Source: Escherichia coli 042 (GTDB lineage Bacteria; Pseudomonadota; Gammaproteobacteria; Enterobacterales; Enterobacteriaceae). Taken from it: a stretch of 64,000 nt of DNA. Both the position numbers and the translations under genes were made by a program. Below the pieces are notes generated by a model. That model was not told where the DNA came from. It searched no databases and saw only the letters and a list, made by a program, of their open reading frames with translations. The DNA lies in NCBI RefSeq assembly GCF_000027125.1, contig NC_017626.1. The stretch is one strand, 5' to 3'. Position 1 is the stretch's first letter; each line of letters begins with the position of its first letter. Below, in pieces: positions 44,606 through 56,391 of this stretch.

Positions 44606-44700
44606 GGAAGATCGTCGTCTCCGGTGAGGCGGCTGGACTTCAAATCCAGTTGGGGCCGCCAGCGGTCCCGGGCAGGTTCGACTCCTGTGATCTTCCGCCA
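44606..44700 (+). tRNA. selC: tRNA-Sec (selenocysteine, anticodon UCA)
   Basis: 95-nt ggaagatcgtcgtctccggtgaggcggctggacttcaaatccagttggggccgccagcggtcccgggcaggttcgactcctgtgatcttccgcca; long extra arm; anticodon loop cTTCAaa. Confidence 0.95.
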
Positions 44701-44702
44701 AA
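44680..44702. repeat. attL core (3' end of selC)
   Basis: gactcctgtgatcttccgccaaa, repeated exactly at 55733..55755. Confidence 0.8.
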
Positions 44703-44862
44703 CTTCATCCAGCCAGTTCCGAGATGATCCATAAAACCATTTATATTCAATATGATGAATAATCATCTTATCCGTAACAGTCCGAGATCGTCTCCCTAAA
44801 TCCGCGAAAAATATGTATAGTAATGTGTATAGATTTTTTATAAGTAGTTTTCAGTTATACAC

Positions 44863-46044
44863 ATGGCTCTCACCGATATACAGATCAAACGTGCAAAACC
44901 ACAAGACAAGCCATACACATTGAACGATGGACAAGGTCTGTCATTGCTTATCAATCCCGATGGCTCGAAAGGCTGGCGTTTCCGTTTCCGGTTTGCAGGG
45001 AAAGCGCGGTTAATGTCATTTGGCAGCTACGATTTAGTAAGCCTCGCAGAAGCACGTGAGAAGCGTGATATCGCCCGTAAGCAGGTTGCTAATGGCATTG
45101 ACCCGGTAGAGGAACGCAAAGCTTTAAGACTCGCCCAAAAGCTATCAACAGAAAATTCTTTCGAAGCAATATGTCGAGAATGGCATACCAACAAAGCTGA
45201 CCGCTGGACTGTGGCCTATCGAGAAGAAATCATTAAGACATTCGAGCAAGATGTCTTCCCGTTCATTGGTAAACGTCCTATCAGTGAAATCAAACCATTA
45301 GAACTGCTTGAAGTATTACGACGAATCGAAAAACGTGGAGCACTAGAGAAAACACGCAAGGTGCGTCAAAGATGCGGTGAGGTTTATCGCTATGCAATCA
45401 TAACTGGCCGTGCTGAGTACAATCCTGCACCTGATTTAGCTATCGCTCTGGCCGTTCCCAAGCAAAAACACCATCCATTTTTATCCGCTGAAGAGTTGCC
45501 TCATTTTATTCGAGATCTTGAAGCGTATACCGGTAGCATCATCACCAAAAATGCTACGAAGATAGTCATGCTGACTGGTGTAAGAACGCAGGAGATGCGC
45601 TTTGCTACGTGGGAAGAAGTAGACCTCGAAAAAGGTATATGGGAGATACCAGCGGAACGTATGAAAATGCGTAGACCTCACATTGTTCCTTTATCTACTC
45701 AGGTAGTTGACCTTTTCAAACAGCTCAAACCTATTACCGGCCATTACCCTTACATCTTTATTGGTAGGAATAACCGTAATAAACCAATCTCAAAAGAAAG
45801 TGTATCACAAGTAATTGAGTCACTCGGTTACAAAGGACGTGCTACCGGTCACGGTTTTAGACATACAATGTCGACAATTCTACATGAGCAGGGGTTTGAT
45901 AGTGCATGGATTGAGATGCAATTAGCACATGTGGACAAAAACAGTATTCGTGGGACATATAACCATGCCCAGTATCTGGAAGGCAGAAAAAAAATGATGA
46001 ATTGGTATGCTAATCATATCTTTAATATAGGGGTTCCTAAATGA
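44863..46044 (+). CDS. int: P4-type tyrosine integrase
   Basis: 393 aa MALTDIQIKRAKPQDKPYTLNDGQGLSLLINPDGSKGWRFRF; sits beside attL. Confidence 0.9.
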   Translation: MALTDIQIKRAKPQDKPYTLNDGQGLSLLINPDGSKGWRFRFRFAGKARLMSFGSYDLVSLAEAREKRDIARKQVANGIDPVEERKALRLAQKLSTENSFEAICREWHTNKADRWTVAYREEIIKTFEQDVFPFIGKRPISEIKPLELLEVLRRIEKRGALEKTRKVRQRCGEVYRYAIITGRAEYNPAPDLAIALAVPKQKHHPFLSAEELPHFIRDLEAYTGSIITKNATKIVMLTGVRTQEMRFATWEEVDLEKGIWEIPAERMKMRRPHIVPLSTQVVDLFKQLKPITGHYPYIFIGRNNRNKPISKESVSQVIESLGYKGRATGHGFRHTMSTILHEQGFDSAWIEMQLAHVDKNSIRGTYNHAQYLEGRKKMMNWYANHIFNIGVPK

Positions 46045-46179: not shown

Positions 46180-47616
46180 ATGTGCATAGAATTAAAAAAG
46201 TTTTCAATTAAAAAATTATATGGCTATAAAGACATACATCTAATTTTCAATAAAAAAAGTACAATTATCATTGCAGAGAATGGTGCTGGCAAAACTACGC
46301 TAATCAATGCACTTAAATCCACCTTAAAAGGTGAGTTTGATGAACTAAGAAAAATCAAGTGTGAGAGTATTGATATAGAGTTTTCTGATCAAAAATTCAC
46401 ATTGAATATTGCAGCATTAAGTTATTCTGATTTTCTGAATAATGCATTGTTACCAACTAGATTTCGTGAAATCACGAAAAATCTTAATAATACACAAATT
46501 GAAGATGCATTAGCATTTCTAAGACATAAACCAGTGAAGGATGCCCGTCAGACTACATGGTACCGAAAAATGTATCATACAACTCCTTATAATTACATTG
46601 ATATCGACTCGACATTATCCGAAGTCAAAATCTTATTAAAAAATCATTATTCATCTCTTGAAAAACCTGATCTTTTCTCTGTAAATAAACCAGAACTGTC
46701 TAAAACCATCCATGCAATAGAGGAAATAAAACAGAAAACAAAAAATATTGAAATAATATATTTACCTACATACCGACGCATTGAAAAATCTACACTTCGT
46801 GATAAGTTTACTAGAGATGAAAATGAAAAATTCGTCTTTAGAGATGGAGAGATCGTCAGTATTCGCGAGGAAAGTGAAACTAACTTAAATATAGAGTTTG
46901 GTTTGTTTGATGTTGAATCAAAATTAAAAGATTTAAGCGCATCCATTGAGCGCCGTTCAAGTTTAGGCTATAGAAAGTTAAGTGCAACCATAATTGAAGA
47001 TATGATGACAGGAAAAGCCAGTGCCCCAACAAAACCTAAACTGCCATCTGTATCTGAATTATCAAGATTTTTAGGTAGGGTAGTTAATAAAGATAAGGAA
47101 AGTAATAAGAGGATAATTCAAGAAGTTACAAGCATCATGGAAAATAAAGATATGCTCGCATCAAATAATATGCTGAGTTATTTCCTATCTAAATTAAAAG
47201 CTGTCATCGACTCAACTAAAGAGCTCGAACTAAAAATAGAGAGCTTTGTTACCATTTGCAATAAATATCTACAGTTATCAGATGATTCAAAATCGCTAAA
47301 TTTTGACATTGAAACATTACAAGTTATTGTAAAAGACTTATTCACAAATAACCCCATTGAATTAGAAGATCTTTCCTCAGGCGAAAAACAAATAATTTCT
47401 TTGATGGCTCATATGTATCTTGACCATACTAAGAAAAAAATTGTTTTAATAGATGAACCAGAATTATCGCTCTCACTTGAATGGCAAGAGCATGTCCTCG
47501 TAGATATAGTGAATAGCCCTTCAGTTACTCAAATGCTTGCAATAACACATTCACCTTTTGTTTTTAATAATGAACTGAAATCCCAAGTAACATCTTTGAA
47601 AGTTATCAAGCATTGA
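46180..47616 (+). CDS. ABC-type ATPase (AAA_15/AAA_21-like), candidate AriA-like (PARIS) or AbiLi-like defense ATPase
   Basis: 478 aa; Walker A AENGAGKTTLINAL; Walker B/D-loop IVLIDEPELSLSLEW; H-loop-like AITHSP; AT-rich; SD gtaggag 8 nt upstream; in the P4 int-psu cargo slot. Confidence 0.7.
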   Translation: MCIELKKFSIKKLYGYKDIHLIFNKKSTIIIAENGAGKTTLINALKSTLKGEFDELRKIKCESIDIEFSDQKFTLNIAALSYSDFLNNALLPTRFREITKNLNNTQIEDALAFLRHKPVKDARQTTWYRKMYHTTPYNYIDIDSTLSEVKILLKNHYSSLEKPDLFSVNKPELSKTIHAIEEIKQKTKNIEIIYLPTYRRIEKSTLRDKFTRDENEKFVFRDGEIVSIREESETNLNIEFGLFDVESKLKDLSASIERRSSLGYRKLSATIIEDMMTGKASAPTKPKLPSVSELSRFLGRVVNKDKESNKRIIQEVTSIMENKDMLASNNMLSYFLSKLKAVIDSTKELELKIESFVTICNKYLQLSDDSKSLNFDIETLQVIVKDLFTNNPIELEDLSSGEKQIISLMAHMYLDHTKKKIVLIDEPELSLSLEWQEHVLVDIVNSPSVTQMLAITHSPFVFNNELKSQVTSLKVIKH

Positions 47617-47624
47617 GGATTAGA

Positions 47625-48551
47625 ATGGACGATCTTCGTTTTAATATGATGATGGATGCGATCAAAAAACCGTGTGTTTTGAGATTAAAGCTAATTAAAA
47701 ACAAAAAGGCAGGAAAGGCTTTATTTGTTTTCGAAGGTGACGATGACTATGATTTCTATCATCATGCTATAACTATTTCCGGTTTCGATAAAGAATATAC
47801 TCATATAAATGGGGCAGGAAAGAACCAATCTATTTCCCTTTATGAAGAATTATATAAAGAAAATAGTGATAATTTACAAAACACATATTTTTTTGTTGAT
47901 CAAGATTACTCTACCTTCTGTTACTCTAATAAAAACATAGTAACACTTCCATTTTATGCCATTGAGAACCCATTATCAGATGATAGAGTAATAAAACATT
48001 TTATAATCTCAACATTTAAACTTGACGAAAGGCATAGCAAAATTATAAATAGCGTTATGGGCTTTTATTCTAAGGCAAAAGCTAGCTTTTATTCTGAGAT
48101 AAAAAACATATCTATACAGCTGTATATGTCCAGAATACTTGGACTCGCGATAGAGTTTCCTTCAAACCATGAATTATTCGAAAAAATTGAAAAGGAAAAA
48201 GTCACCCTTAAAATAAATGAAATACCGGCAATTACTGATCGGTTAAAAAAAATAACAAAAGACGAAGAGAATTACTACAAAGTAATTTCCACTCTAGATA
48301 ATGACAAACTGACTAGAGGAAAGTATGTTTACTATTTTGTTAGCGAGTGGTTAATCCGCATAAAAAAATACATCAATTCAAGGATAGATAGTATAAATAA
48401 TGAAAGCGCCTTAAACTCTACCTCTTCAGTAGTGAATGAAAAAAAATTATCCAAACAACAATATGATCATACTGACCTGTCAATCGCAAGGCTTGTTCCT
48501 GCATGTATGAAAGTAAAAGAATTGGATGCTTTCTTAAAAAGGATTAATTAA
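47625..48551 (+). CDS. TOPRIM / DUF4435-like protein, candidate AriB-like (PARIS) or AbiLii-like effector
   Basis: ORF track starts at a TTG (47613); I place the start at the ATG 47625 with SD gagga 6-10 nt upstream. LFVFEGDDDYDFY and FFVDQDY fit TOPRIM Glu and DxD acidic motifs; AT-rich; separated from the upstream ATPase stop by 8 nt. Confidence 0.65.
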   Translation: MDDLRFNMMMDAIKKPCVLRLKLIKNKKAGKALFVFEGDDDYDFYHHAITISGFDKEYTHINGAGKNQSISLYEELYKENSDNLQNTYFFVDQDYSTFCYSNKNIVTLPFYAIENPLSDDRVIKHFIISTFKLDERHSKIINSVMGFYSKAKASFYSEIKNISIQLYMSRILGLAIEFPSNHELFEKIEKEKVTLKINEIPAITDRLKKITKDEENYYKVISTLDNDKLTRGKYVYYFVSEWLIRIKKYINSRIDSINNESALNSTSSVVNEKKLSKQQYDHTDLSIARLVPACMKVKELDAFLKRIN

Positions 48552-48570: not shown

Positions 48571-48589
48571 GTGCTTTCCCCGCCTCGCC
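48571..48589 (-). other. cos site (P2/P4 19-nt cohesive end)
   Basis: Reverse complement of gtgctttccccgcctcgcc is ggcgaggcggggaaagcac, the P2/P4 cohesive end as recalled; an adjacent hairpin ccgcccg-ctttgc-cgggcgg plus tttt (48589..48612) may act as a terminator. Confidence 0.7.
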
Positions 48590-48754: not shown

Positions 48755-49327
48755 TTACACAGACTGACGTGATGCCAGTTCTGCACTTTTACGCGAAAAA
48801 ATCATGTTCTGCGCAGGGGTGAATTTTTCACGGCTGTCATCCACCGAAGCCGCGTCAGGCCTGAATCCGATGGTCGTTAAAATGTCGCTATCCTGTGCGG
48901 AATAATTAATTTTTTCCCCCTTCGCAAGCCAGGACAGAAGGGCTTCACGCAGGACATCTGTGGCACGCTGTATGGCACAGTTTCGGGCAATGGCCGTCAG
49001 CTCACTGTAGCCCATCAGCTCCGGTGCCAGTGCGGCCGCCAGTGCTGTGCCGTGCTGCTGCATAAAATCATTCAGCCGCTCGCGGATGCTGATGTGCTGA
49101 ACGGCTTCATGCGAACGAACATAACGACCGGCGGCCTGATTCACCTGCCATTTTCTGACTTCGATAATATTGCGTAATTCGTCCAGGCGACTGACGTTTC
49201 TGCCTTCCCCGGACAGAAGCCGCAGATATTCCTGTTCGGCTGCCGCCAGTTCATTTTTGCGCTGAAGCCATGCCGCTTTGTTATTCTGGCAGACCTCAAA
49301 AGCCTGCTGTAATGACATTGTGGTCAC
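48755..49327 (-). CDS. psu: Polarity suppression protein Psu (capsid decoration / Rho antagonist)
   Basis: 190 aa; MTTMSLQQAFEVCQNNKAAWLQRKNELAAAEQEYLRLL closely matches P4 Psu as recalled. Confidence 0.85.
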   Translation of the reverse strand: MTTMSLQQAFEVCQNNKAAWLQRKNELAAAEQEYLRLLSGEGRNVSRLDELRNIIEVRKWQVNQAAGRYVRSHEAVQHISIRERLNDFMQQHGTALAAALAPELMGYSELTAIARNCAIQRATDVLREALLSWLAKGEKINYSAQDSDILTTIGFRPDAASVDDSREKFTPAQNMIFSRKSAELASRQSV

Positions 49328-49341
49328 ACCCCGTCCCCTGA

Positions 49342-49587
49342 TTAATGGTTGAATGGTGAGCTGTAACAGCCTTTAACTTTTCGGACAACAGCCGGTGCTG
49401 TGCTTACCGGTGCTGGTTTTTCCTCCGTGACCGGAGAACGAATCACGGCACAAATTGACTCATGCGTTTTAAATGTCGCCGAACAGTAAATATTCTGGCA
49501 CTGCAGATAACTTTCTTTGACATTGTCACTCACATACCGGCTGGTGCGGGTATGCGCTGAATGACGACAGAAAGGGCAGCGCATCAT
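49342..49587 (-). CDS. delta: Ogr/Delta-family zinc-finger late transcription activator
   Basis: 81 aa; CPFCRHSAHTRTSRYVSDNVKESYLQCQNIYCSATF (C4 zinc finger); single-domain form. Confidence 0.8.
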   Translation of the reverse strand: MMRCPFCRHSAHTRTSRYVSDNVKESYLQCQNIYCSATFKTHESICAVIRSPVTEEKPAPVSTAPAVVRKVKGCYSSPFNH

Positions 49588-50318
49588 GACAGCAGTCCTC
49601 TGGCCTTAAGCTCTGCTCCCTGCTGGTCTATTTTGTCCTGCCACACCTTGCGCTGTGCCGGTGTGCCTGCCACCTCATAATCCATGTGCGGGAGTGTTGC
49701 CGCTGACAGTCCGGTCAGCCGGAGAACCGGCTCGCCGGTGAGGCTGATTTGCATCTGTTTTATTTTCTGTTCCAGCGATGATTTCACCTGCTGCATGACA
49801 GCCTTTTCCGGCGCGACGTAGCCCTGATGGCCGGTGGTGTTGGCGAGCGGATTTTCCTGTACCAGGATGCTCAGATGCATTGCCCGGACAAGCGCCTCAC
49901 AGGTTTCATTCAGGGCGTGTTCCAGCTCATGCTCTGCATACAGACTCAGCAGGTGATGATGTGCCTTCCGGTAGGCGGTGGCCGTGCTGTCACACGCCCC
50001 TTTCAGGCGTTCACGTTCAAAATTCAGCACCACGGCCAGATTGTCATATTCCTGTACCAGCTCCCGGCGTGCCACGCGCTCAATGTGGCGCTGTTTCAGC
50101 TCGTCGCTCAGGACACCACCGGCTGCACGAAAGGCCGTGCGCCAGTCGTCAGCGTCGTTTCCGTCGGCCTGCGCCAGCGCATTTTTTTCCTGCTCTGCCC
50201 GTTCAATGGCCGTGACGGTCTCATCCATCAGGCGGGCGTTCTCAAGATGGGCGGCTCTGGCCTTTTCCAGTTGTGCCAGCGCGGGTTGCAGATATTCAGG
50301 GATGGTGTTGTCAGACAT
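49584..50318 (-). CDS. sid: Capsid size determination protein Sid (external scaffold)
   Basis: ORF 49584..50384; start placed at MSDNTIPEYLQPALAQ (aggag SD 5 nt upstream), giving 244 aa, the length I recall for P4 Sid; position upstream of delta and psu. Confidence 0.7.
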   Translation of the reverse strand: MSDNTIPEYLQPALAQLEKARAAHLENARLMDETVTAIERAEQEKNALAQADGNDADDWRTAFRAAGGVLSDELKQRHIERVARRELVQEYDNLAVVLNFERERLKGACDSTATAYRKAHHHLLSLYAEHELEHALNETCEALVRAMHLSILVQENPLANTTGHQGYVAPEKAVMQQVKSSLEQKIKQMQISLTGEPVLRLTGLSAATLPHMDYEVAGTPAQRKVWQDKIDQQGAELKARGLLS

Positions 50319-50487
50319 TTTCCGGCTCCTCGTCACTTCAGGTTGAGAAAATTGTGACGTACACCGGACAACAACACGACGCATTGCAGATGTGCCAGCC
50401 CTGACACAGGAGACTCATCCTCAGACCGGCAAGCCAGGAAAAGGTCGCAGGAAAAACCGGCTTACTGTTTGTTTTTTTTATATTTTA

Positions 50488-50592: not shown

Positions 50593-50870
50593 CGTTGATG
50601 GGCTTTTTGTGCTGTTTATTACTTTTTATTTTTATTAATTCACTGAAATAAATAAGAAAAAACAATTTGTATTTCACTATAATTTTTTCCAGCTCCTTCC
50701 AGAGCGTTTTAAAGCTATCTGGCGCTGATGTACAAAAAATACACAGCCATTGTAAGGCTGCCGGAACAAATCCCCCCTGTTGCGTCTGCCGAAAATATTC
50801 ACAAAATAAAGCGCTACCCGAAGCCGGACGGACTTATCCGGTGCTGTATGGACATTAACGAGGTAGCCCG

Positions 50871-52922: not shown

Positions 52923-55256
52923 ATGAAAATGAACGTAACCGCCACCGTCAGCCATGCGCTCGGCCACTGGCCGCGTATTCTCCCGGCGCTGGGGATTCAG
53001 GTGCTGAAAAACCGTCATCAGCCCTGTCCGGTCTGTGGCGGGAGTGACCGCTTCCGTTTTGATGACAGGGAGGGGCGCGGCACCTGGTACTGCAATCAGT
53101 GTGGTGCCGGTGACGGCCTGAAACTGGTTGAAAAGGTGTTTGGTGTTTCCCCGTCCGACGCGGCCGCAAAGGTGGCTGCCGTGACCGGCAGCCTGCCACC
53201 GGCTGACCCGGCAGTGACGACCGCCGCCGTTGCTGAAACAGACGCTGCCCGGAAGAACGCCGCCGCACTGGCACAAACCCTGATGGCGAAAACCCGTCCC
53301 GGAACCGGTAACGCCTACCTGACCCGCAAGGGCTTTCCCGGCCGGGAATGCCGGATGCTGACCGGCACACACAGAGCCGGTGGCGTGAGCTGGCGCGCCG
53401 GTGACCTTGTGGTGCCACTGTATGACGACAGCGGCGAACTGGTTAACCTTCAGTTAATCAGTGCTGACGGCCGTAAGCGCACCCTGAAAGGCGGACAGGT
53501 CAGGGGCACCTGTCACACCCTTGAAGGACAGAATCAGGCCGGAAAACGTCTGTGGATAGCGGAGGGATACGCGACCGCACTTACCGTACATCACCTGACC
53601 GGTGAAACGGTGATGGTGGCGCTTTCTTCCGTGAACCTCCTTTCTCTGGCCAGCCTTGCCCGGCAGAAGCATCCGGCCTGTCAGATTGTCCTTGCCGCAG
53701 ACCGTGACCTCAGCGGTGACGGCCAGAAAAAAGCCGCCGCAGCCGCAGATGCGTGTGAGGGCGTTGTTGCCCTGCCGCCGGTCTTCGGTGACTGGAATGA
53801 TGCCTTCACGCAGTACGGCGGGGAGGCCACCCGTAAGGCCATTTACGATGCCATCCGGCCACCGGCTGAAAGCCCGTTCGACACCATGAGCGAAGCAGAG
53901 TTTTCCGCCATGAGTACCAGCGAAAAGGCCATGCGTATCTATGAGCATTACGGCGAGGCGCTCGCGGTCGATGCCAACGGCCAGCTTCTGTCCCGCTATG
54001 AAAATGGTGTCTGGAAGGTGCTGCCGCCACAGGACTTTGCCCGGGATGTGGCCGGGCTGTTTCAGCGGCTGCGTGCGCCGTTCTCCTCCGGGAAGGTGGC
54101 CTCCGTGGTGGACACCCTGAAGCTGATTATTCCGCAGCAGGAAGCCCCCTCCCGCCGCCTGATTGGCTTTCGTAACGGCGTGCTCGACACGCAGAACGGT
54201 ACGTTCCACCCGCACAGTCCGTCACACTGGATGCGCACCCTGTGCGATGTGGATTTCACCCCGCCGGTGGACGGTGAAACGCTGGAAACCCACGCTCCCG
54301 CGTTCTGGCGCTGGCTTGACCGTGCTGCCGGTGGTCGTGCGGAAAAACGCGACGTGATTCTGGCCGCACTGTTTATGGTGCTCGCAAACCGCTACGACTG
54401 GCAGCTCTTTCTGGAGGTGACCGGTCCCGGCGGCAGCGGCAAAAGTATCATGGCCGAAATAGCCACCCTGCTGGCCGGGGAGGATAACGCCACATCGGCC
54501 ACCATTGAGACGCTGGAATCCCCGCGTGAACGTGCCGCGTTAACTGGCTTCTCACTGATACGCCTGCCGGACCAGGAAAAATGGAGCGGCGACGGTGCCG
54601 GACTCAAGGCCATCACCGGCGGCGATGCGGTGTCCGTTGACCCGAAATACCGGGATGCATACTCCACGCATATCCCGGCGGTGATTCGGGCCGTGAACAA
54701 TAACCCGATGCGCTTCACCGACCGCAGCGGCGGCGTGTCACGCCGGCGGGTGATTATTCACTTCCCGGAACAGATAGCCCCGCAGGAGCGCGACCCGCAG
54801 CTTAAGGACAAAATCACCCGCGAGCTGGCGGTCATCGTGCGTCACCTGATGCAGAAGTTCAGCGACCCGATGCTCGCCCGGTCACTGCTTCAGTCCCAGC
54901 AGAACTCAGACGAGGCGCTGAACATCAAACGGGATGCCGACCCGACGTTTGATTTTATCGGCTATCTGGAAACCCTGCCGCAGACCAGCGGCATGTATAT
55001 GGGGAACGCCAGTATCATCCCGCGCAATTACCGTAAATACCTCTATCACGCCTATCTGGCCTACATGGAGGCAAACGGCTACCGGAACGTACTCAGTCTG
55101 AAAATGTTCGGGCTGGGGCTGCCGGTGATGCTGAAGGAATACGGACTGAATTACGAGAAACGCCATACCAAACAGGGGATACAGACCAACCTGACGCTGA
55201 AAGAGGAAAGCTACGGCGACTGGCTGCCAAAATGTGACGACCCTGCAACAACCTGA
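52923..55256 (+). CDS. alpha: P4 alpha primase-helicase
   Basis: 777 aa; CPVCGGSDRFRFDDREGRGTWYCNQCGAGDGL zinc motif; TOPRIM (IAEGYATALT ... LAADRD); P-loop GPGGSGKS; length equals P4 alpha as recalled. Confidence 0.9.
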   Translation: MKMNVTATVSHALGHWPRILPALGIQVLKNRHQPCPVCGGSDRFRFDDREGRGTWYCNQCGAGDGLKLVEKVFGVSPSDAAAKVAAVTGSLPPADPAVTTAAVAETDAARKNAAALAQTLMAKTRPGTGNAYLTRKGFPGRECRMLTGTHRAGGVSWRAGDLVVPLYDDSGELVNLQLISADGRKRTLKGGQVRGTCHTLEGQNQAGKRLWIAEGYATALTVHHLTGETVMVALSSVNLLSLASLARQKHPACQIVLAADRDLSGDGQKKAAAAADACEGVVALPPVFGDWNDAFTQYGGEATRKAIYDAIRPPAESPFDTMSEAEFSAMSTSEKAMRIYEHYGEALAVDANGQLLSRYENGVWKVLPPQDFARDVAGLFQRLRAPFSSGKVASVVDTLKLIIPQQEAPSRRLIGFRNGVLDTQNGTFHPHSPSHWMRTLCDVDFTPPVDGETLETHAPAFWRWLDRAAGGRAEKRDVILAALFMVLANRYDWQLFLEVTGPGGSGKSIMAEIATLLAGEDNATSATIETLESPRERAALTGFSLIRLPDQEKWSGDGAGLKAITGGDAVSVDPKYRDAYSTHIPAVIRAVNNNPMRFTDRSGGVSRRRVIIHFPEQIAPQERDPQLKDKITRELAVIVRHLMQKFSDPMLARSLLQSQQNSDEALNIKRDADPTFDFIGYLETLPQTSGMYMGNASIIPRNYRKYLYHAYLAYMEANGYRNVLSLKMFGLGLPVMLKEYGLNYEKRHTKQGIQTNLTLKEESYGDWLPKCDDPATT

Positions 55257-55580: not shown

Positions 55581-55732
55581 TTCTTCCGAAAAAAAATTTT
55601 TTTCCTGAGTTAACGTGCGTGAAGATGCGTGTAAAAATTAATCGATAGATATTATATGTATAAGGATGTGTATAAATGAATTAGAGCTGATAAATATAAA
55701 CGATTGGAATCAAATGGTTATATATCAATTTA

Positions 55733-55755
55733 GACTCCTGTGATCTTCCGCCAAA
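55733..55755. repeat. attR (duplicate of the selC 3' end)
   Basis: gactcctgtgatcttccgccaaa, identical to 44680..44702. Confidence 0.8.
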
Positions 55756-56391
55756 ATTCCTCTTCTGACGTTCTCCAACCCCTTGTAATACTGTCAATCC
55801 AGATATTTTCTACTGCTCAATATTCAATCGGCTTCAGGAATACCTGATCAAAGGTTTTGTGATGGACGATGAGCGACTGAAGAATCCGCCTGTCGGTTCT
55901 TCTGTCCTCGAACGCATCCGCGATATTCGCGCCAGCATGCGCCGTGTTTATTTGCAGGTGATTTGCCCCCCTGCTGACTCTCAGCCAACTGTATCGCCAT
56001 TAAGGTGAAGATGTTGTTTTACACGCCCCAGAACACCCTTTTTTTATACGACGATTCTATTCCTTTAACCGCTGACGAAAAAAACTGACCTATAAACTTC
56101 ACCAATAATCAGACTGCCATCAAGATTAATGTGTTCATTTAATATATCAAATAAACTTGTTTTATTTTTACTATCAAAAATAGCTCATTGCCTTACTATA
56201 ATTAATATATAAATTCGGTGATTAATTCTTAACATGCTTTTGCTAATAATCTCAATTGCTGGCCCTATAATATTGCGCTAGCATTGTTTTCTGGTTGTAT
56301 CAGCGATACTCAAAAATTCTTAATATAATACTCATTCGACTGGTACTTATTTGTAACTCAGTTATATTTTGTCGCCCGGTGATTCAGAAGA

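Follow-up and report, generated by a model that had tools for sequence, protein, structure and literature searches.

Organization of the P4-type satellite at selC

We analyzed a stretch of 64,000 nucleotides from the Escherichia coli 042 chromosome (hereafter, the window), which contains a complete P4-type prophage of about 11.05 kb at selC. The tRNA-SeC gene was located at 44606-44700 using ARAGORN. Its 3′ end holds attL (44677..44709, plus strand), which is repeated directly as attR (55730..55762, plus strand), a 33-nt repeat with 91% identity. The integrase gene (44863..46044, plus strand) was recognized by the Pfam models Arm-DNA-bind_3, Phage_int_M, and Phage_integrase. Between int and cos, the hotspot carries a PARIS-type cargo (46180..48551, plus strand), in which PADLOC and Pfam identified AriA, an AAA_15 ATPase (PADLOC, 1.4e-32), and AriB, a DUF4435 protein (PADLOC, 1.5e-15). 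The cos site (48571..48589, minus strand) showed zero mismatches to the P4 cohesive-end 19-mer; 0.02 chance matches were expected. The alpha primase-helicase gene (52923..55256, plus strand) encodes 777 aa, as long as P4 alpha, and matched Zn_Ribbon_Prim, Toprim_3, D5_N, and Pox_D5. An alpA-like gene, a cI/epsilon region, ORF151, a DUF5375 gene, and 120-bp crr repeats were the other parts of the satellite.

The remaining window is ordinary E. coli chromosome, running from tdh through waa to yicJ, and no P2-like helper prophage was found within the window. Just outside attR, at about 55831-55959, lies a short rhuM pseudogene fragment according to the VR50 annotation, possibly left behind by another island formerly inserted at selC.

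The gene under study lies in the late operon sid-delta-psu on the minus strand. The sid gene (49584..50318) encodes 244 aa, of which 243 are identical to P4 Sid. The mechanically called sid ORF spans 49584-50384 (266 codons); homology to P4 and the RefSeq CDS place the true start at 50318, and the extra 22 codons overlap the Psid promoter sites. The psu gene (48755..49327) encodes 187-190 aa depending on the start codon, matched Pfam Psu with an E value of 6.5e-89, and is 94% identical to P4 Psu at the protein level. Between them lies delta (49342..49587), which reads from ATG to TAA with 81 codons plus the stop codon. Just as in P4, the sid stop codon and the delta ATG overlap (ATGA), and psu starts 14-23 nt past the delta stop; delta appears to be translationally coupled to sid. 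This delta sits between sid and psu in an element that also has int, alpA, epsilon, alpha, and cos.

Domain structure of the window Delta

The ORF, its Pfam match, its RefSeq entry, and its dN/dS values all point to a predicted single-domain late activator of the Ogr/Delta type. The initial annotation had described a single Ogr-like domain in this 81-aa protein and had given P4 Delta as a tandem form about twice as long; we found both statements to be correct. Pfam PF04606 (Ogr_Delta) matched one stretch of the window Delta, at residues 3-45, with an E value of 1.4e-18 and 67 bits. This score is above the curated threshold of 26.3 bits and makes the protein a member of the Ogr/Delta family by profile. 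P4 Delta (NP_042043.1; NC_001609 10314-10814), with 166 aa, showed two stretches matching the same model.

The zinc-finger domain (49453..49581, minus strand; aa 3-45), delimited by the Pfam stretch, the alignment, and the AF2 model, contains Cys4, Cys7, Cys30, and Cys35 in a CxxC-22-CxxxxC pattern, and these residues are the putative zinc ligands. In an alignment of 24 sequences, C4, C30, and C35 were invariant and C7 was nearly so. AF2 modelled aa 1-40 as a three-stranded zinc ribbon, with pLDDT above 90. The C-terminal tail (49345..49452, minus strand; aa 46-81) is set apart by homologue conservation, its own dN/dS, and the AF2 model, in which confidence across the tail was low (48-65). The tail ends in the motif KGCYSSPFNH (49345-49374, minus strand; aa 72-81), which is conserved in the short family. 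A sequence search of the PDB returned no Ogr/Delta family member, with NrdR as the best match (E 0.14), and a Foldseek search with the AF2 model of the window Delta gave nothing below E 0.6. The identical gene is annotated in E. coli VR50 as an "ogr/Delta-like zinc finger family protein" (RefSeq WP_000984202.1).

Alignment with P4 Delta and the helper activators

The window Delta was aligned with P4 Delta, P2 Ogr, and 186 B. It could be aligned to both halves of P4 Delta, with 23/45 residues identical in the N half and 21/56 in the C half. When the proteins were compared with one another, identity was 31/71 to P2 Ogr and 32/71 to 186 B versus 27/73 and 22/72 to the two P4 Delta halves; the short protein is thus closer to both helper activators than to either half of P4 Delta. 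After the finger, the window Delta keeps an ES-I-x-x-x-I-x-x-P segment, whereas the N half of P4 Delta is without it, and the I-x-x-x-I-x-x-P part is also present in the single-domain Ogr and 186 B proteins. Position 42 is His in the window Delta, Tyr in Ogr, and Met in B; work on the ogr52 mutant reportedly implicates this position in contact with the alpha subunit of RNA polymerase.

The phage collection was searched with both DNA and protein. A megablast with the psu-delta-sid segment returned only P4 records and one fragment, and the best protein identities were found in P2-like phages, at 45-57%.

Exchange of delta on the P4 backbone

We then compared the DNA of this region with P4. Identity was 97-100% across sid and collapsed right after the shared TGTCATGAT at the start of delta. 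Within the first hundred bases of psu, it was back to 85-88% and then to 95-100%. The drop in identity covers 49305..49580 (minus strand), which takes in delta from its third codon onward, the spacer between delta and psu, and the opening codons of psu. Because identity to P4 collapses at codon 3 and returns in the first codons of psu, the alignment tells us that delta is a precisely bounded swapped cassette on a P4 backbone, standing in place of the 166-aa tandem Delta. The 1,751-bp psu-delta-sid segment is 100% identical to that of E. coli VR50. E. coli matches with a long delta aligned as two pieces, spanning 2064 bp versus the 1751 bp here.

The frequency of both forms was counted in 5,426 complete E. 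coli genomes. The psu-sid backbone was found at 1,305 places in 1,081 genomes. The short delta was present in 153 genomes (156 places, almost all with at least 99% identity) and the long P4 delta in 925 (1,070 places). The one-finger form thus accounts for approximately one-eighth of the P4-backbone satellites of complete E. coli genomes.

In addition, natural 81-aa chimeras were found in four assemblies (L035, 5966-6211; L036, 932-1177; L037, 5906-6151; L038, 11-256). Nucleotides 1-117 of the chimeras correspond to the N-finger sequence of the long P4 delta with at least 99% identity, nucleotides 109-246 correspond to the short-delta allele of the window with 99.6-100% identity, and the crossover lies in the shared GCGACATTT. 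The chimeras sit in otherwise complete satellites with different cargoes. These four chimeras therefore indicate that finger and tail have been exchanged in nature.

A conserved family of short Deltas

A protein search returned single-domain homologues of 79-88 aa with 62-83% identity from Escherichia, Salmonella, Citrobacter, Raoultella, Klebsiella, Tatumella, Mangrovibacter, and other hosts. At every homologue locus that we examined, Delta was flanked by Sid (245 aa) and Psu (187-188 aa) within a P4-like element, and this sid-delta-psu context was kept in E. coli/Enterobacter, Raoultella, Tatumella, and other hosts. A second P4-like lineage has a short delta of its own; here, the 81-aa Delta was 70-79% identical to that of the window versus 61-66% for Sid and Psu. 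The initial annotation had proposed a P4 relative of the single-domain type. This proposal was borne out insofar as a large family of single-domain satellite Deltas exists, always between sid and psu; however, the element in the window is not a distant relative but a P4 backbone in which only the delta cassette has been exchanged. Two Salmonella clusters (P0028 and P0025) contain proteins of 100-103 aa with the finger at residues 23-68, and their extra length may reflect an extended N terminus, unless the start codon was mis-called.

Across genera, the terminal motif recurs in every short Delta as KGCYSSPF(N/R/S)H; Ogr, 186 B, and P4 Delta do not have it. We estimated dN/dS between the window delta and its homologues by the Nei-Gojobori method and obtained values of 0.07-0.21 for the whole gene, 0.06-0.16 for the finger, and 0.11-0.29 for the tail. 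The whole-gene values indicate that the short-delta homologues are under purifying selection.

The exact 81-aa protein was listed in 7,461 index blocks. We inspected 20 of its genomic contexts, nearly all of which were complete satellites; they carried about a dozen different cargoes in the hotspot and were inserted at one of three sites, namely selC, ssrA, or the proA side. Other satellites with an identical delta carried Gabija-like, Hachiman-like, nSTAND/Mrr, and other cargoes. The single-domain delta is already annotated, being present in RefSeq and in thousands of genomes, and is a common, ordinary variant.

Putative activator sites upstream of sid and the alpA-like gene

Pattern matching located two TGT-N12-ACA sites in the Psid late promoter region (50353..50408, minus strand), at 50391-50408 and 50353-50370, centred 81.5 and 43.5 nt upstream of the sid ATG. 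These two are the putative -55 and -18 activator sites. Every base of both dyads agrees between the window, P4, and an E. coli satellite with a long delta. A further TGT-N12-ACA site (50751..50768, no strand assigned) lies in the region of the leftward late promoter, PLL, upstream of the alpA-like gene; its half-sites are kept, and the spacer varies between elements. The motif was not enriched across the window, with 18 occurrences found versus 14.9 expected; therefore, we used only the position of the sites and their identity to P4 as evidence.

In the native short-delta lineage (L017, L020, and L021, at about 2215-2232), the proximal Psid site is degenerate and reads TGT-N12-AGA; the distal dyad is retained there, with its spacing to the sid ATG unchanged. 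Given the degenerate proximal site, some co-adaptation between the activator allele and its promoter may have occurred. The initial annotation had suggested that the single domain may affect which helper late promoters are activated. The satellite promoter sites on the P4 backbone are identical with either allele, and a changed DNA recognition is not suggested by these sequences.

Alternative explanations for the short delta

The combined evidence makes it very likely that this ORF is a functional delta, in its single-domain allelic form, belonging to a complete P4-type satellite at selC, and several other readings were weighed against this one. The ORF might be a truncated pseudogene of a P4-type 166-aa delta, as the initial annotation had already considered. 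The window Delta is half as long as P4 Delta, its finger region aligns to the N half, and real truncations do exist: E. coli Z0117EC0116 retains only the first 66 nt of a P4-type delta (L040, 1501-1566), interrupted by IS1A and flagged as a pseudogene in RefSeq, and P0053 is the product of a frameshifted sid-delta fusion. However, no remnant of a second domain precedes psu in the window, and the delta DNA, the finger included, has only about 40-70% identity to P4 delta. The 81-aa length and the terminal KGCYSSPFxH are conserved across genera, dN/dS is low in the tail as well, and the exact protein recurs in thousands of assemblies within complete satellites. The conserved tail, selection, the absent second-domain remnant, and wide occurrence refute this reading, which we find hardly credible. 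Recent capture of a helper-phage ogr or B gene by the satellite would account for the Ogr-like size and architecture and for the best matches in the phage collection being P2-like phages. Nevertheless, no phage record exceeded about 57% identity over most of the protein, the C-terminal motif is missing from Ogr and B, and the close homologues are all in the satellite sid-delta-psu context. On the grounds of the low phage identity and the missing tail motif, recent capture was rejected as very improbable.

It is also conceivable that the tandem form is ancestral and that the short delta arose by internal deletion or recombination within it, leaving an N-type finger joined to a C-type tail. Consistent with this, the finger of the window Delta is most like the N half of P4 Delta, the post-finger segment ICAVIRSPVTEEKPA has its counterpart in the tail of the C half (INRFIVRPVTPDELA) rather than in the N half, and the natural chimeras demonstrate that recombination within delta is real. 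A recent deletion derivative of P4 delta was rejected because of the divergence of the DNA noted above. Moreover, since Ogr and 186 B also have the I-x-x-x-I-x-x-P segment, it belongs to the ordinary layout of the family and does not mark a C half. Ogr and B resemble the short protein more closely than either P4 half does, and the short form is found in a more divergent P4-like lineage, where it is better conserved than Sid and Psu. Taken together, we consider a tandem ancestor quite unlikely. Rather, the single-domain form probably came first in satellites, with the tandem form of P4 derived; this direction is read from distribution and identity levels, a second lineage having the short form at 70-79% identity but Sid and Psu at only 61-66%. 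Finally, the short and long alleles may be functionally distinct specificity variants, differing in helper range or promoter preference and maintained as a polymorphism of a single P4 backbone. Each allele is frequent (153 versus 925 genomes) and the backbones are nearly identical, the cassette is sharply bounded, a conserved terminal motif is peculiar to the short family, and the proximal Psid site differs in the native short-delta lineage. On the other hand, the satellite promoter sites are identical with either allele, and the 1996 work of Julien and Calendar reportedly found that phiR73 Delta and P4 Delta act alike on P2 and P4 late promoters. We regard functional divergence as unlikely. 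In a bolder version, the delta polymorphism would set which P2-like helpers can be exploited, the disordered-looking KGCYSSPFxH would be an interaction motif not described before, serving dimerisation or contact with a partner from the helper or the host, and the chimeras would show finger and tail to be exchangeable modules; we consider this combination improbable and put it forward as speculation.

Proposed mode of action and significance

Published work describes Delta as an Ogr homologue that activates transcription (PMC7552001, PMC8628076), and phiR73 Delta is reported to activate the P2 PF promoter strongly (bioRxiv 10.1101/2022.11.09.515794). By analogy with P2 Ogr, 186 B, PSP3 Pag, and the P4 and phiR73 Deltas, we propose that the single-domain allele in the window would be made from Psid after infection by, or induction of, a helper. 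It would bind the TGT-N12-ACA dyad upstream of P2 late promoters and of the satellite Psid and PLL promoters, and, once bound, would recruit RNA polymerase through the alpha subunit. The helper morphogenesis genes would thereby be switched on, and expression of sid, delta, and psu would be amplified. As the site is a dyad, the one-finger Delta most likely binds as a homodimer, as is thought for Ogr, whereas the two-finger Delta of P4 would supply both halves of the dyad in one chain. In the work of Julien and Calendar from 1995/1996, activator sites reportedly lie at about -55, P4 promoters have an extra site at about -18, and the activator contacts the alpha subunit of RNA polymerase.

The proper annotation of this gene is that of an intact satellite late activator (delta, single-domain type), not a fragment, and the significance beyond correct annotation is small. 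At the population level, there is modest added value in viewing delta as a sharply bounded, exchangeable cassette on a near-clonal P4 backbone. Should the short and long forms turn out to differ in helper range, P4-like satellites would be diversified by delta as a third module, next to the defence hotspot and the integrase.

Comparison with known Delta and Ogr proteins

The window Delta resembles P4 Delta in its position between sid and psu, in the ATGA overlap, and in its Pfam family, and the Psid target sites in cis are identical. However, there are two Ogr_Delta stretches in P4 versus one here, so that the protein does not have the two domains and about 166 aa of the P4 form. The delta DNA could not be aligned with that of P4 by megablast, and the terminal KGCYSSPFNH is absent from P4 Delta.

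P2 Ogr and 186 B (72 aa) share with the window Delta one Cys4 finger with identical cysteine spacing and 44-45% identity, and, by analogy, the same recognition dyad is expected. In contrast, Ogr and B are encoded by helper phages, are nine residues shorter, and are without the KGCYSSPFxH terminus.

With respect to phiR73, the hotspot cargo differs, being PARIS here and retron Ec73 in phiR73. No retron-bearing, phiR73-like context turned up among 20 inspected neighbourhoods, which covered the exact protein and a nearly identical variant, and phiR73 is not named among the sources of six homologue clusters. A 968-aa RVT_1 protein adjoins an 88-aa Raoultella homologue, and this is not a retron Ec73-type locus. 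The Delta of retronphage phiR73 is reportedly a single Ogr-sized protein of a P4-like prophage in selC (Sun et al. 1991; Julien and Calendar 1996). The element in the window is likewise inserted in selC and has a single Ogr-sized Delta; in this respect, the two would be alike in kind.
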